DNA from: a virus
Length of the DNA stretch: 17,434 nucleotides
UHGV virus genome: UHGV-1770886
Strand: one strand, 5' to 3'
The notes beneath the pieces were generated by a model. It had not been told where the DNA came from, ran no database searches, and saw only the letters and a list, made by a program, of their open reading frames with translations. A program made the translations under genes and the position numbers. Positions 9,754-16,061 of the stretch are shown piece after piece; positions within the stretch are counted from its first letter, which is position 1, and each line of letters starts with the position of its first letter.

Positions 9754-9965
9754 CAGAACCTCGCAAGCCGGTACCCGGGATGCCCCCGTCGTCGTGTAAT
9801 CAGAGCCGCAAGGCGGCGCTCCCACTCCTGCCGTCCCTGCCGGATCTCAGATAAGTTTTCCATGGTCATCTGCTGACCATTAAAGGTGACGGATTTTCCG
9901 TCCAGCACCGCCATTTCAGCTTCCGTATAACGCTGAATCATGGCTTCGATATCATTCTGGTTCAT
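9753..9965 (-). CDS. W: head-tail joining / head completion protein (lambda gpW-like)
   Basis: 70 aa, AVLDGKSVTFNGQQMTMENLSEIRQ ... ITRRRGHPGY is gpW-like (lambda W: ...[28 protein letters not shown]...RRRGPAGFYV). ATG at 9965 has GGAGG 6 nt upstream and overlaps the terminase stop (ATGA). Confidence 0.8.
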   Translation of the reverse strand: MNQNDIEAMIQRYTEAEMAVLDGKSVTFNGQQMTMENLSEIRQGRQEWERRLAALITRRRGHPGYRLARF

Positions 9966-12064
9966 AACCATCCTCCGGAAGTCAGCCAGGGGTTAACATC
10001 GTCAGTTACTGTTTTCTTCCGTTTTTGTTTTTTAACAGGCGTGGATACCGGTTCCGGTGTGGGTGACGGTTCGGTACTGTCCGGGACACACTCCAGCCAG
10101 GTTTCCCGGCTCGCCCACTCCGGTGCATCCGGCCAGCGGATCTTTTCGTATCCATGCAGAATGACCAGAGCCTCGGCATACACCATCAGGTCAAAAGCTT
10201 CGTTGGCACCGCGACCCGGCTTACTCCATTTCCCGTCACTGCTCCGCTCTTCATACGTCAGTTCGTCGTAAAACCAGCTCCCCAGCCAGTCAGGGAAATG
10301 CACATAGCCGGGACCTGGCGAGTCACGCCATAACGCGTTATTCACCCGGTCTTTCAGGGCATCCGTCTGAAGAAGCCAGAGCGGTACATCACCTGCGGCC
10401 TGCGCCCGTCGGCCCGTTCGTCCGGTGTTATCAGGGAATGTACGGGTGATCAGTTTTGCGCGCCGGATGCTGTCGCCCTTAAACAGGTAAATACGTTTAC
10501 CAAGGCCATCACGACGGCAACGACGCCAGAATTTATAGGCATTATCAGTGACTCCGTCTTCACCGCCGGAGTCCACCGCCATTGCCATCAGTCGCATTTG
10601 TTGAGAAGGATCGGAGGCCAGCGGCCAGCTTTTATGAAAAACATCCGTCAGCAGGACATCCCAGTCTTCCGGATAGCTGGCCGGATCAATTCGCTGGCTC
10701 TCCCCGTCGCTGTCACCGCGCAATGACTGCGTGATGTTGTAACGATCAATAATCCAGCGTTCGCCACGGCTGCCATAGCCCGTTACCTGAACCACAAAAC
10801 GGCGATGACGTCCCGCCTGCACATCAACTGTCGCCACCAGGAAATTAACGCCATCCGGCACACTGCGGGAAGGAACTGGCTCTGCCCGCTGCTCAAGCAG
10901 TTCACTTTTTCGTTGCTCCATGCTGGCACGGGGAAGATAAGGTAATCCCCAGTCGGTATTGATAACCGTCTTGAGTGTTTCTTCACTTCCGGTTGTCTCG
11001 TATTCCTGTTCTGCAGCAAGCAGTTTGTAAACGAGTTGCGAGAGTGTCTGGTAAGCAGCTGCCGGACCCTCCATCCAGAATGACGCAATACGTGAGCGTC
11101 GGGGATCACCATAACGACTGCCATCCGCATTGATGGATTCACCATCCCGCAACCAGACCCCACGTCCGTTCAGCTCACGTTTTTGTTCAGGCATAATCCG
11201 TCCTGAACAGGAAGGACACTGAATATAAGCCGCCTCACTTGCCAGCACGGGATCGGCAATATCACGGAAACCAGCAACCACATCGCCGCAGGGCTGAAAA
11301 TACTCACCACAGTGTGGACAGGGCCAGTACCAGCGACGGCGATCGCCACGGTTATAGAGCGACAGTATCCCCGTGGTTGGTGGAGCCTCATGCGGTGAAG
11401 TCCGTCGCCATTTCACATCCTTCACATCCCTGCCGGGGGAACTCTCCACCAGCGTCATACCACTGGACATAAATGTGGTGGTACGTTTTGAGGCAAGAGA
11501 GAAGGCATCCCCCTCGCCATCAATATCTTCCGGAAAACGGTCATAATCCGTCAGCGCCACGCATTTATAATCTGATGAGGACATGATATTGACTGACGGC
11601 CAGCCGATTTTCAGGTAGTTGCCAGCAAGGAATGTTCTGTCATAAACGTTGTTGTCATTTTTGTTCGGACTCAGGCGACTGACCACTTCCGGGCTGACGC
11701 GAAACGTTCTGGCAAGTCGTTTTTTGGAGTGTTCGCGGGCTTTTTCCTCCGTCATCTGAATGATCAGCATATCAGCAGGATCGCAAATCACGTTGTAAAT
11801 CACCCAGCCGTCAATCAGGCCGATAGTCTTGCCAGTTCGTGCCGGGCCAACAAATATCACTGCGTCGTATTCACGCGAGGCCAGGCAGTTCATCGGCTCA
11901 ATAACATACGGTGCCACCAGCGGATCCCACGGGACTGAGTTCCCGGCCCCCATGGGCACCCGCATATACTGAGCAACGGCATCAGCAACCCGCATTCGTC
12001 TCGGTGCGCGAAGGATATAACCTGAATCGGTTCGTGCTGCCTTTGCGGTTTCCTGATTCAGCAT
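9962..12064 (-). CDS. A: terminase large subunit (lambda gpA-like)
   Basis: 700 aa. Walker A-like GPARTGKT. CPHCGEYFQP zinc-ribbon-like motif parallels lambda A ACPHCGEEQYL. Start ATG overlaps the small-subunit stop (TAATG) with AGGAGGAG upstream. Confidence 0.9.
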   Translation of the reverse strand: MLNQETAKAARTDSGYILRAPRRMRVADAVAQYMRVPMGAGNSVPWDPLVAPYVIEPMNCLASREYDAVIFVGPARTGKTIGLIDGWVIYNVICDPADMLIIQMTEEKAREHSKKRLARTFRVSPEVVSRLSPNKNDNNVYDRTFLAGNYLKIGWPSVNIMSSSDYKCVALTDYDRFPEDIDGEGDAFSLASKRTTTFMSSGMTLVESSPGRDVKDVKWRRTSPHEAPPTTGILSLYNRGDRRRWYWPCPHCGEYFQPCGDVVAGFRDIADPVLASEAAYIQCPSCSGRIMPEQKRELNGRGVWLRDGESINADGSRYGDPRRSRIASFWMEGPAAAYQTLSQLVYKLLAAEQEYETTGSEETLKTVINTDWGLPYLPRASMEQRKSELLEQRAEPVPSRSVPDGVNFLVATVDVQAGRHRRFVVQVTGYGSRGERWIIDRYNITQSLRGDSDGESQRIDPASYPEDWDVLLTDVFHKSWPLASDPSQQMRLMAMAVDSGGEDGVTDNAYKFWRRCRRDGLGKRIYLFKGDSIRRAKLITRTFPDNTGRTGRRAQAAGDVPLWLLQTDALKDRVNNALWRDSPGPGYVHFPDWLGSWFYDELTYEERSSDGKWSKPGRGANEAFDLMVYAEALVILHGYEKIRWPDAPEWASRETWLECVPDSTEPSPTPEPVSTPVKKQKRKKTVTDDVNPWLTSGGWL

Positions 12065-12555
12065 TACTCCTCCTGCTGTAATTCCTCCTCATCATCCGCA
12101 CCTGCTTCGGTCACCCGCAGGGCTATCTGATCGCGCAGATCATCAATAATGGACTGAACACGGCTCACAGCGGCAGGCTGCAGGCCGCAGTCACGTTCCA
12201 GAATATCCGGTAATGTCTCCAGCACCTGCACGACCGCTTTTGCCCAGATGGCAAACTCCCGTCTGACATCACTGGCCGGAATGAGTTGTGCCGTTTCCTG
12301 TTCGAACTTAAGACGCTCACGTTCAGACTGATACCAGGCTTTGCGTTCATGTGGATCCATTTCGCCCTCAGCAACCGGCGGTGGTAACCCCATAAATTCA
12401 GTCAGAATATCGGTCAACCGGTATAGCTTGAGTTTGTCATGTCCACCAGCGGGACGAATGTTTTTCAGTCTTGCCACGACAGTCTGGCGGTGCAGACCAG
12501 ATAAAGCCGCCAGTTGATTAATATTCAGCACCAGGTTTTTCAACTCATGATCCAT
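12064..12555 (-). CDS. Nu1: terminase small subunit (lambda Nu1-like), N-terminal HTH
   Basis: 163 aa. N-terminal LNINQLAALSGLHRQTVVARL is a winged-HTH like Nu1. Acidic C-terminal tail. GGAGG upstream of ATG 12555. About 185 bp downstream of the putative cosN, the same spacing as lambda. Confidence 0.8.
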   Translation of the reverse strand: MDHELKNLVLNINQLAALSGLHRQTVVARLKNIRPAGGHDKLKLYRLTDILTEFMGLPPPVAEGEMDPHERKAWYQSERERLKFEQETAQLIPASDVRREFAIWAKAVVQVLETLPDILERDCGLQPAAVSRVQSIIDDLRDQIALRVTEAGADDEEELQQEE

Positions 12556-12775: not shown

Positions 12776-13107
12776 CCTGACAACCGTGACGAGCATCTGA
12801 AACAGAGCGTTACATAATGGCATGGGGATAATTCAGAAGGACATCACAGCATGCCCACACAAATTAGTGTGAGTGTCCTGTTTCTTACTACGCGCAGGAC
12901 TGACGAGCATGAGGGGAAAATACGCGAACCGAAATGCCTTATCTTCAGAAATGCAGCCGGCATCCGAACTGGACGATATTGTAAATTCACCTAAATACGA
13001 GGCATTGCTGTAGTTGAATTGCAGTACTGTATTAGCCTTACAGTGACAGAATACGATATTGACTCTGTCACTTGTGAAATGGTCAGAATGGTTAGCAGTT
13101 ATGGTGA

Positions 13108-13314
13108 TCAGTCAACCACCAGGGAATAATCCTTCGTATTCTTATCGTGCTTTACTAACGCGGCCTCAATTGCCCTGAATGCTTCCAGAGATACTTGATG
13201 TTCTATACATGCAATTACAACATCCGGGTAACCCATCGAAATGGTGCTATTAAGCATAGTTTTTACACGAACCTGCTCCTGGGAGGGGGCATCAGTGTAT
13301 TGATCTTTATGCAT
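13108..13314 (-). CDS. small conserved lambdoid hypothetical protein (68 aa)
   Basis: ATG 13314 with GGAG 8 nt upstream. Protein ...[53 protein letters not shown] recall a near-identical 68-aa ORF near the right end of lambda, but could not verify this. Confidence 0.5.
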
Positions 13315-13510
13315 TTTGTCGCTCCATTCGTTTGCTCTTCACTTGCGGCTAAAAATATAACGTCAAATCACTCAGCATGAAAGAGTGAAAGTTTCAGCGC
13401 GTTTCCCTTACATAATCTGTCGTTTGTATTCTCTTCAGGCATACCGGAAAGACTAGGTATTGTCACACAACCAATACCATTGACAATCGAGATTTATATC
13501 TATTCGGTAA

Positions 13511-13546
13511 TGTTTAAATATAACAAAACCCCGTAAAAACGAGGTT
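13511..13546 (-). terminator. putative rho-independent terminator downstream of the gns-like gene
   Basis: Minus-strand AACCTCG-TTTTTA-CGGGGTT (7-bp stem with one G.U) followed by a U-rich run (TTGTTATATTT). Confidence 0.4.
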
Positions 13547-13609
13547 TATGGGTAATTTGTATTGTTGAATAGCATCTGATGAGAAATTGATGCTAATACT
13601 ATAAACATG

Positions 13610-13783
13610 CTAGATTAAATCAATCTTGATATCATAGCTTTCAAGACCAGTCATTTTTTCCCGTGCAGTAAACTGGATACTGGTAACTTCTTTCCCGGTC
13701 TTTTTCTTAAGCTCAATGATTTTTTTTGTTATATATTCAGAAATATCTGCTTCTGTTTTTGTTTTTAACTCTTCAATGTTCAT
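13610..13783 (-). CDS. gnsB: GnsA/GnsB-family small protein (57 aa)
   Basis: MNIEELKTKTEADISEYITKKIIELKKKTGKEVTSIQFTAREKMTGLESYDIKIDLI matches my recollection of E. coli GnsA/GnsB in length and motifs. AGAGGAA upstream; second of two tandem ATGs chosen for spacing. Symbol gnsB is from Qin-prophage-like synteny and is not verified. Confidence 0.55.
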   Translation of the reverse strand: MNIEELKTKTEADISEYITKKIIELKKKTGKEVTSIQFTAREKMTGLESYDIKIDLI

Positions 13784-13955
13784 CATTTCCTCTTTTAGTC
13801 TGTTATGACTGTCCTGGTACACAGTAGTGTCAATTATATGGAGCAAACGTATAAAAGATAAGATGAAACATCGCAATAATCAACATACGACGGTCTAAAT
13901 TTCACACAAACAGATAAAGATGATTATCATTTATTATCAATGCATTAGAATCAAA

Positions 13956-14186
13956 TCAATTCAAGAGTCTCATTGCTGCTTCCAGAATTTCTTCTGAAGT
14001 TACATGTCGATCCGCTGCTACATAAATGACTTTATGATCTCCGGTCAGAGATGGAAACCCTGCAGCCATTACAGTGAGGTGTGTTGTTTCGCCATTTGGA
14101 TATTCACGCATGATGGTGTTAACTCCGGTCATCACTGGCACTACCATTGCTGGTTCAGAGTTAAAAAAAACTATTATTTTTTTCAT
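13956..14186 (-). CDS. hypothetical small protein (76 aa from ATG; track gives an 89-aa GTG-initiated version)
   Basis: ORF track 13956..14225. The GTG start at 14225 would sit inside the terminator U-tract, so ATG 14186 (MKKIIVFFNSEPAMVVPVMTGVNTIM...) is preferred despite a weak SD. AT-rich. No family recognised. Confidence 0.35.
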   Translation of the reverse strand: MKKIIVFFNSEPAMVVPVMTGVNTIMREYPNGETTHLTVMAAGFPSLTGDHKVIYVAADRHVTSEEILEAAMRLLN

Positions 14187-14230
14187 AATGTTACCGTAAT
14201 ATGTGAGTATCCATCGACTAGACACTAAGC

Positions 14231-14250
14231 AAAAAAGCTCCCGAAGGAGC
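14231..14250 (-). terminator. putative rho-independent terminator downstream of the csp gene
   Basis: Minus-strand GCTCC-TTCG-GGAGC (5-bp GC-rich stem, tetraloop) followed immediately by TTTTTT (plus-strand AAAAAA at 14231..14236). Confidence 0.5.
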
Positions 14251-14457
14251 CTTCATTTTCACTTTCTTAAATCTAACGACAGATGGCTAACATTTAAGTA
14301 TTGTGAAATATTATCAAATGTAATCATCATTGATTTACAAAAGATACATTTTGCCCCGAAAGGATTTCTGTCAGAAACATCAAAAGATGATGTTCTATAC
14401 TGAGAACCATGGCAACACGGGCATCTAAAGTGAATATGGTTTGTAATATTTTCTACC

Positions 14458-14670
14458 TCAAAGTGCCACTACATGAACAGCTGCAGGGCCTTTAGGTCCG
14501 TTCTCAATACCAAATTCGACTTCCTGATTCTCAGTTAACGTTTTGAAATCGTTGCTCTGAATAGCTGAGAAATGCACAAACACATCTTTGCTACCATCTT
14601 TCGGCGTGATGAAACCAAAACCTTTTTCAGGGTTAAACCATTTCACTAAACCAGTCATTTTGTTAGACAT
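14458..14670 (-). CDS. cspI: CspA-family cold-shock protein (70 aa)
   Basis: [38 protein letters not shown]... carries the canonical RNP1/RNP2 cold-shock-domain motifs (KGFGFI, VFVHF). AAGG SD and csp-like leader (AAAGGTAATAA ATG). Paralog call cspI rests on synteny (csp next to Rz) and recalled sequence. Confidence 0.85.
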
Positions 14671-14814
14671 CATTATTACCTTTTGAAGAAGTTAGCCCTT
14701 GGGCAGAATGGTCCGAAAAAAAATATCAGAGAGAAAAACCAACAAGGAAATCTCAAGAGGTACAAATAATAAAATTATAACAATGACTGCTTCAGATAAT
14801 TTTGTAACAAACCA

Positions 14815-14850
14815 GAACACCATTAACGCATGATTAACCAACCATAGCAA
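14815..14850 (-). promoter_or_regulatory. candidate sigma70 promoter for the csp gene with ~145-nt leader
   Basis: Minus-strand TTGCTA (plus 14845..14850), 17-nt spacer, GTTAAT (plus 14822..14827), resembling the cspA promoter (TTGCAT / CTTAAT). AT-rich UP-like sequence upstream. Sequence inspection only. Confidence 0.3.
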
Positions 14851-15033
14851 GGATTACTTTTGTAAAGAAAAACACACGAATGAAACAATAGCTTTATTTA
14901 TTAATAAAACGTGTCATTCTGTCTAATGACCTTTTATCTTACCCTTAAGATTTCAAGGATTTTGACTCATGGAAGAGTCCTTTTTATTTAAATTTCACAT
15001 TCAGCGCTAAAAATAATCCGATTTAATATTAAT

Positions 15034-16061
<1,028 letters not shown>

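Follow-up and report, generated by a model that had tools for sequence, protein, structure and literature searches.

In the Qin prophage of E. coli K-12, the cold-shock gene cspI is followed by ynfQ, ynfR, ynfN and gnsB (b1552, b4724, b4749, b1551 and b1550 in the order cspI to gnsB), with ynfN annotated as 51 aa and ynfR as 21 codons. Paralogous csp, ymcF and gns genes make up the K-12 cspG-ymcF-ymcE-gnsA locus, which is chromosomal, adjoins yccM and is not part of a prophage; GnsA and GnsB are 63-65% identical. However, this locus lacks the ynfN segment and instead has a 76-codon ymcE that is unrelated to YnfN. In published work, additional copies of either gnsA or gnsB led to more unsaturated fatty acid and acidic phospholipid at low temperature. 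In multicopy, both genes raise the level of unsaturated fatty acids, including 16:1 and 18:1, and suppress the defects of fabA6, secG-null, relA/spoT/fadR and lapC190 strains (bioRxiv 10.1101/2024.03.27.586906; PMC10607373).

The window analysed here, a stretch of 17,434 nucleotides from the viral genome UHGV-1770886, contains the Qin genes in the same order, on the same strand and with nearly the same spacing, at about 95% DNA identity over 900 bp and with the same Rz gene upstream (Table 1). A preliminary description of this DNA had pointed to a csp / small ORF / gns arrangement in E. coli, and the order and spacing in Qin bear this out. The window differs from Qin in that ynfN encodes 76 aa, ynfR is reduced to 12 codons, and cos and the terminase genes are retained downstream, where Qin has decayed. 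We conclude that ynfN and gnsB are the already known, annotated tail of a cold-shock cassette found in lambda-like E. coli prophages. With a probability of about 0.8, they are the last two genes of a phage-borne cold-adaptation cassette and do not form a dedicated toxin-antitoxin pair.

Since thousands of E. coli genomes already carry annotations for both genes in this arrangement, the finding in itself matters little. A megablast search with positions 13000-14900 returned DNA of 100% identity from many genomes, E. coli S88 and APEC O1 among them, with matches in 2644 of 5426 complete genomes, and the phages HannyBb and mEp460_ev081 were 99.9% identical to this region. Over the 1.9-kb island as a whole, mEp460_ev081, HannyBb and 2H10 show 99.4-99.9% identity and carry it in the same place, close to their right genome end; these records name the 76-aa gene only as a hypothetical protein and differ in nothing of substance. 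In S88, RefSeq gives the order rzpQ, cspI, ymcF (labelled "cold shock small protein"), a 12-codon pseudo-ORF, ynfN, gnsB, a 68-aa hypothetical gene, DUF1441 (Nu1-like) and terminase. The exact YnfN and GnsB sequences of the window are recorded under these names, each on at least 1000 public contigs. Both small ORFs singled out in the preliminary description are real minus-strand genes, located where it had placed them, and each is contained in a longer ORF of the mechanical listing.

Table 1. Features of the cold-shock cassette and its surroundings in the window, in order of position.
Feature	Position	Strand	Basis or remark
Large terminase gene	9962-12064		flanks island
Nu1-like small terminase gene	12064-12555		flanks island
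YbcW-like ORF, 68 aa	13108-13314	-	phrog_657 E 4.6e-48
Terminator-like hairpin and U tract after gnsB	13526-13547	-	pattern scan, 9 pairs; RNA fold -11 kcal/mol
gnsB, 57 aa, GnsA/GnsB family	13610-13783	-	ATG at 13783; PF08178; RefSeq gnsB
Mechanical ORF containing gnsB proper	13610-13876	-	ORF listing
Promoter-like block TTGATT-N17-TATCTT in ynfN-gnsB spacer	13855-13883	-	conservation
ynfN, intact 76-aa form	13956-14186	-	phrog_3425 E 1.1e-55, positions 1-76 of 76; RefSeq
Mechanical ORF containing the 76-aa protein	13956-14225	-	ATG at 14186
T8 homopolymer, ynfN codons 6-8	14163-14170	-	pairwise DNA alignment, column 291
ynfR remnant, 12 codons	14218-14256	-	RefSeq pseudo-CDS 'too short'; K-12 Qin alignment
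Intrinsic-terminator-like hairpin and U tract after ymcF/ynfQ	14231-14254	-	RNA fold -12.5 kcal/mol; pattern scan
ymcF/ynfQ, 62 codons, ATT start, CxxC...CxxC	14259-14447	-	PF23641 (YmcF-like) E 1.5e-34; RefSeq
cspA-type thermoregulator (5' leader and cspI CDS)	14412-14828	-	Rfam RF01766
cspI, cold-shock protein gene	14458-14670	-	PF00313 E 1.7e-31; RefSeq cspI in identical S88 locus
Rz lysis gene	15034-15531		flanks island

The cassette lies in what had been described as an AT-rich island between lysis genes and cos, and both parts of that description hold. The GC content is 0.32-0.38 over about 13400-15200 compared to 0.50-0.59 in the flanks, and the island has Rz on one side and the Nu1-like and large terminase genes on the other. 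AT-rich, equipped with its own terminators and placed between late lysis genes and cos/terminase, it has the properties of a lambdoid prophage moron island, and its slot is that used in Citrobacter prophages. The series cspI - ynfQ/ymcF - (ynfR) - ynfN - gnsB is a known cold-shock accessory ('moron') block, which lambdoid prophages of the Qin and mEp460 types carry between Rz and cos/terminase in both Escherichia and Citrobacter. Such a package would supply an RNA chaperone (CspI), a small zinc-ribbon-like protein, YnfN and a modulator of membrane lipids.

At its upstream end the cassette has the makeup of a CspA-type cold-shock operon, with a thermoregulator leader and a CSD protein. The match to RF01766 spans the full model (1-428) and reaches 110.1 bits, where the gathering score is 78 (E 1.4e-28); it was the sole Rfam match, and Rfam reported no RNA gene in the ynfN-gnsB spacer. 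CspI matches the NCBIfam CspG/CspA/CspE models with E values of 1e-40 to 1e-36, and a PADLOC run over the locus gave no defence-system match beyond the generic CSD model on this protein. The two small genes had been placed downstream of the cold-shock gene, which is correct, but they do not follow it directly: ymcF/ynfQ, the ynfR remnant and a terminator hairpin intervene. The first of these, ymcF/ynfQ, had been overlooked in the first reading. Its ATT start and its YmcF/YnfQ protein are kept in all of the Escherichia and Citrobacter loci, and its dN/dS is 0.12. The hairpin that follows, of the type GGCUCC-UUCG-GGAGCC, is conserved in the Citrobacter loci and at the paralogous cspG-gnsA locus. 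The ynfR remnant overlaps this hairpin; in K-12 the YnfR ORF also spans it, and YnfR is strongly cold-induced (PMC6001520).

The gene ynfN is found where it would be expected, downstream of cspI and flanked by ynfQ/ynfR and gnsB. RefSeq gives the exact 76-aa sequence as "protein YnfN" (WP_000720960.1), and elsewhere it appears as YnfN or as a Qin prophage protein. The 51-residue K-12 YnfN (b1551) aligns with residues 26-76 of the window protein, with 48 of 51 residues identical (94%), and the same residues match the 51-residue phrog_4911. Within ynfN, the sole structural difference between the two DNAs is a homopolymer that is T8 in the window and T7 in K-12. As a result of the missing T, the upstream frame in K-12 runs into a stop and the annotation starts at an internal Met, yielding 51 aa. 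This alignment indicates that the K-12 YnfN is a frameshift remnant and that the 76-aa form of the window is intact; the latter is the ancestral-type version of the gene. In the preliminary description the 76-aa ORF was raised as a possible different partner for a Gns-family protein. Instead, it is the YnfN of the very cspI-ynfN-gnsB locus that was named there, and it seemed unfamiliar only because K-12 carries the truncated version.

Conservation of the 76-aa ORF, which had been named beforehand as a check, was clear. In the comparison of Escherichia with Citrobacter, the ATG at 14186 marks the precise point from which the nucleotides are conserved; the GTG extension ahead of it shows no conservation. 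The orthologues give a dN/dS of 0.10; the csp value from this calculation, inflated by one misplaced coordinate (L017), was left out of consideration. Full-length homologues in Citrobacter species are 66-77% identical, and homologue and profile searches recovered more distant relatives of ~75 aa at 30-59% identity. Judged by this pattern of substitutions, ynfN is a real gene under purifying selection rather than a chance ORF. The AlphaFold2 model of YnfN is confident (mean pLDDT 88.7, pTM 0.76) and consists of five strands and then a C-terminal helix; it found no match in the PDB, and the 76-aa protein fell into no Pfam, NCBIfam or PADLOC family and had no functional assignment in PHROG. YnfN is thus predicted to be a small soluble protein with a beta-rich, five-strand and one-helix fold that has no recognisable relative. 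The impression that the 76-aa ORF is unlike the membrane protein YmcE was correct. Besides its predicted soluble fold, YnfN gave no Pfam match to PF15939 even at E <= 1, whereas K-12 YmcE matches this family at 1.6e-56, and BLASTP of YnfN against YmcE returned no alignment at E <= 100.

How ynfN is expressed may be judged from the conservation of the locus together with K-12 expression tables. From the ymcF/ynfQ hairpin to the ynfN start there are only about 45 poorly conserved bases, which makes read-through from the cold-inducible cspI promoter the simplest way in which ynfN might be transcribed. If there is read-through, ynfN would belong to the cspI operon as a distal and attenuated gene. 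Proteins of the CspA family are transcription antiterminators, a plausible route to more read-through in the cold, and it is possible that this activity aids transcription past the hairpin. In K-12, azidothymidine (AZT) treatment induces cspI 6.5-fold, ynfQ 5.9-fold and ynfN 5.8-fold, with similar dependence on LexA and SspA, and gnsB does not appear in the list that gives these values (PMC11228462).

The downstream gene had been assigned to the GnsA/GnsB family, and the assignment is secure: its product matches PF08178 over the whole profile (1-54 of 54) at 114.5 bits, the cutoff being 27 (E 2.1e-33). GnsB also matches phrog_2301 (E 1.9e-39) and, over residues 1-56, the sequences of the GnsA crystal structures 4XO1 and 4XO2 (phmmer E 7.9e-20). 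It carries the invariant AREKMTGLE.YD motif and is 93% identical to K-12 GnsB, and the dN/dS of gns between Escherichia and Citrobacter is 0.065. Given that GnsB is a homologue of GnsA, and given the lipid effects described in the literature, the cassette is best read as a cold-adaptation package.

The two genes had been called tightly ordered, but from the stop of ynfN to the start of gnsB there are 172 bp, and the corresponding distance in Citrobacter is about 210 bp. Apart from the promoter-like block and the ribosome-binding site, the spacers of Escherichia and Citrobacter have diverged. A related promoter-like block (TTGATTATTGAATCTTTC) is found upstream of gnsA, inside 'ymcE'. We infer from its conservation that the TTGATT-N17-TATCTT block is probably the gnsB promoter; it was not reported by a simple consensus promoter scan, and two registers of it are possible. 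Taken with the K-12 expression tables, this conservation suggests that gnsB would be transcribed from its own promoter-like block and end at its own terminator.

Such an arrangement bears on whether ynfN and gnsB could be a toxin-antitoxin-like pair, in which GnsB would inhibit growth via phospholipid synthesis and YnfN would neutralise it by binding. Such a pair would resemble the one proposed in print for YmcE and GnsA, except that the two antitoxins are not homologous. The likeness to type II operons such as relBE and yefM-yoeB is that a small upstream gene precedes a small gene labelled as a toxin in databases. Both ynfN and gnsB are under purifying selection, Pfam and RefSeq call Gns proteins addiction-module toxins, and surveys of toxin-antitoxin systems include GnsAB together with a partner gene upstream (PMC6265476; PMC10790755). 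However, the genes of type II systems typically overlap or abut, whereas here a 172-210 bp spacer with a promoter-like element lies between them, and in K-12 it is cspI and ynfQ that ynfN tracks. Furthermore, YnfN has no recognisable DNA-binding fold or known antitoxin fold, unlike the upstream proteins of relBE and yefM-yoeB.

The known effects of gns genes also speak against a toxin. When cloned without a partner, multicopy gnsA and gnsB were recovered as suppressors that improve growth, not as killers, and were beneficial in several genetic backgrounds, so the idea of a potent toxin fits badly. The opposing claim comes from Wei et al., who in 2015 reportedly found GnsA to be toxic and to be neutralised by YmcE; the toxin label on Gns proteins in Pfam and RefSeq traces to that work.

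The model case of YmcE and GnsA is itself weak when examined by comparative genomics. The ymcE ORF overlaps both ymcF and gnsA, and the promoter-like block as well as the conserved terminator lie within it. Its start codon is lost in E. albertii, and 1-bp deletions interrupt it in E. whittamii and in Escherichia sp. E1V33. In E. ruysiae, YmcE is 56% identical compared to 98% for YmcF and 95% for GnsA. Between E. coli and E. albertii, ymcE has an omega of 0.81 at a dS of 0.08, whereas the flanking genes have omega values of 0.02-0.12 at a dS of 0.3-0.6. Values of this kind are those of constrained non-coding DNA. On comparative grounds ymcE thus looks doubtful as an antitoxin gene, its protein not being conserved in other Escherichia species. 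The name 'addiction module toxin' given to Gns in RefSeq has poor comparative-genomic support.

We surveyed Gns loci in one genome per species from Escherichia, Shigella and Citrobacter, and located Csp, YmcF/YnfQ, YnfN, YmcE, Gns, Rz, Nu1 and YccM in each by tblastn. The survey comprised 26 loci; the contigs were scanned with two exact peptide patterns, which under-sample divergent Gns genes such as that of L038. All 26 loci have csp and ymcF immediately upstream. On the other hand, ynfN is patchy: it is present in 15 of the 17 GnsB-type loci, being absent from two of Citrobacter (L023 and L025), and the GnsA-type loci (9 intact and 1 degraded, all chromosomal and adjoining yccM) are without it. 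The genes that accompany gns without exception are therefore csp and ymcF, and ynfN is not among them. Despite having no ynfN beside it, gnsA has an omega of 0.02, indicating that Gns is strongly selected without YnfN at this locus throughout the genus.

The conserved order of a small upstream gene and gns in prophages of Escherichia and Citrobacter, at 15 of 17 GnsB-type loci, is nevertheless what a toxin-antitoxin pair would predict. The Citrobacter prophages carry the block Rz-csp-ymcF-ynfN-gns-Nu1, and 160 IMG/VR loci show the cassette block as well, although these matches are near-identical E. coli prophages only, which confirm the cassette and add no independent evidence of co-occurrence. 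The adjacency of ynfN and gns is thus confounded by the common descent of the whole cassette. In addition, an intact gnsB lies beside a frameshifted ynfN in K-12, which is viable, and likewise in C. murliniae and some 6 of 80 IMG/VR loci.

Distant YnfN relatives give a view of independent events, and in 7 of 7 such contexts they have no adjacent gns. Chromosomal relatives adjoin csp (L004 and L206) or ynaE (L209), and one in a distant lineage follows HSP20 (L038). Others (L042-L045) occupy the Rz-terminase slot of other prophages with neither csp nor gns, one (L210) lies beside a transposase fragment, and one (L211) lies beside an Acb2/Tad1-hairpin-like gene. At L038, a gns gene is found 2.6 kb further on, which places it in one 3-kb stress island with the YnfN relative; this point favours a toxin-antitoxin pair and, together with the 15/17 adjacency, may reflect some functional link between YnfN and Gns. 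In general, however, the comparison of gns neighbourhoods that had been suggested as a check showed that ynfN and gns separate where independent events are visible. Across the surveyed Gns and YnfN loci the two partners fail to co-occur in the manner of a type II system. Taken together, the long spacer with its promoter-like block, the occurrence of each gene alone, the intact gnsB at frameshifted ynfN, and the co-induction of ynfN with cspI and ynfQ in K-12 do not support the candidate two-gene module of the preliminary description, and we regard a YnfN/GnsB toxin-antitoxin pair as improbable.

It is likewise unlikely that YnfN modulates GnsB in some other way. One form of this idea, a non-canonical modulator or neutraliser in which a cold-induced read-through antidote behind the cspI terminator is combined with a separately transcribed membrane-lipid effector, strikes us as very unlikely. 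If YnfN did act on GnsB in this way, the cassette would work as a switch for addiction or adaptation that is gated by temperature.

The same distant relatives raise the question of whether YnfN might simply benefit the phage, for example in anti-defence or superinfection exclusion, from its place in a moron slot and unrelated to cold or Gns. The relatives found between Rz and terminase without csp and gns would be consistent with this, as would the neighbour of the L211 relative and the fact that YnfN belongs to no known fold or family. Against this, neither PADLOC nor PHROG gave YnfN a functional assignment, and the chromosomal relatives reside by genes linked to cold or stress, namely csp, YnaE and HSP20. 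Since the K-12 gene is also co-induced with cspI and ynfQ, we think such a role for YnfN highly improbable. Our best guess is that YnfN is a cold-stress accessory protein that acts with the Csp part of the cassette. If the cassette is indeed a cold-adaptation package, it is one more case of prophages giving enteric hosts stress-tolerance genes.

For annotators, the comparison could be of use in three respects: the 51-aa YnfN of K-12 is the frameshift remnant of a 76-aa protein, ymcE is unlike a conserved coding gene in other Escherichia species, and the toxin name of Gns proteins is poorly supported. Two antisense ORFs on the plus strand, at 13716-13808 and 14004-14228, were set aside as by-products of genes on the minus strand. 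Towards cos, the island ends with the 68-aa YbcW-like ORF, which adjoins the ynfN/gnsB pair but does not belong to it; it is named hypothetical or YbcW in phages and is present in most of the related prophage contigs.

The reading frame of ymcF/ynfQ is absent from the mechanical ORF listing because its start is non-canonical; the same ATT start is found in the window, in E. coli K-12, and in all of the Escherichia and Citrobacter loci examined. The frame has a dN/dS of 0.12, and its product carries a zinc-ribbon-like pattern, CPCCHG...CIFCKS. In K-12, the product of the adjacent ynfR is a validated, cold-induced protein of 21 aa (PMC6001520). In the window, a stop codon shortens ynfR to the remnant listed in the table.

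Features of the csp-gns cassette and related loci (window coordinates unless a comparison locus is named)
Feature	Location	Strand	Remarks
YbcW-like ORF	13108-13314	-	68 aa; phrog_657, E 4.6e-48
TATAAT hexamer	13833-13838	-	perfect match; ~50 nt upstream of gnsB start
T8 homopolymer	14163-14170	-	within ynfN, codons 6-8
ynfR remnant	14218-14256	-	12 codons; overlies terminator hairpin
ymcF/ynfQ	14259-14447	-	ATT start (Ile codon)
ymcE (K-12)	L003 2848-3078		Pfam 'YmcE_antitoxin'
YnfN paralogue 1	L004 3037-3279		chromosomal, near icd; enterobacterium
YnfN paralogue 2	L004 4001-4228		chromosomal, near icd; enterobacterium
YnfN relative and Gns gene	L038 2201-5979		distant lineage; 2.6 kb apart

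When the K-12 cspG-gnsA locus (L003) was compared with four other retrieved loci (L027, L031, L032, and L035), ymcE showed no conservation at the coding level. E. albertii has lost the start codon, E. whittamii and Escherichia sp. E1V33 have 1-bp deletions, and omega is 0.81 with an unusually low dS. Both the ymcF terminator and a gns promoter-like block lie inside the ymcE span, and ymcE may be a regulatory region instead of a gene. Upstream of gnsB, the TATAAT hexamer, which is present in E. coli and not kept in Citrobacter, is a candidate -10 element alternative to the conserved block TTGATT-N17-TATCTT.

The T8 run in ynfN looks like a hotspot for frameshifts. In K-12 the run is T7, yielding the 51-aa YnfN, and the same truncation was seen in about 6 of 80 IMG/VR loci. 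In C. murliniae, a +1 insertion lies just downstream, a few bases from the position of the run.

Relatives of YnfN were also observed elsewhere. The two paralogues in L004 share 35% and 59% identity with the window protein and lie on either side of a csp gene and a ymcF-like ORF that is truncated; gns is absent from this locus. In L038, the order is HSP20, YnfN-like, two unknown ORFs, Mn catalase, and Gns, a gene set that looks like a stress island. The Gns protein encoded there is 60-65% identical to GnsA/GnsB; the family therefore reaches beyond Escherichia and Citrobacter. Other Gns sequences, from contigs attributed to Veillonella parvula and Mucilaginibacter MAGs (L015 and L029) and from a cluster 2 member attributed to Bacteroides thetaiotaomicron (P0233), are essentially identical to those of E. 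coli and most likely reflect binning errors or contamination. The 90%-identity cluster containing YnfN (cluster 1) also includes YmcF proteins of 62 aa, to which YnfN has no relation; the grouping is probably an artefact of clustering that arose via a fused or mis-called ORF.

The final gene ahead of cos is the YbcW-like ORF. Phage lambda 47629-48051, which carries no annotated feature in J02459, matches the 430 bp around this ORF at 82%.
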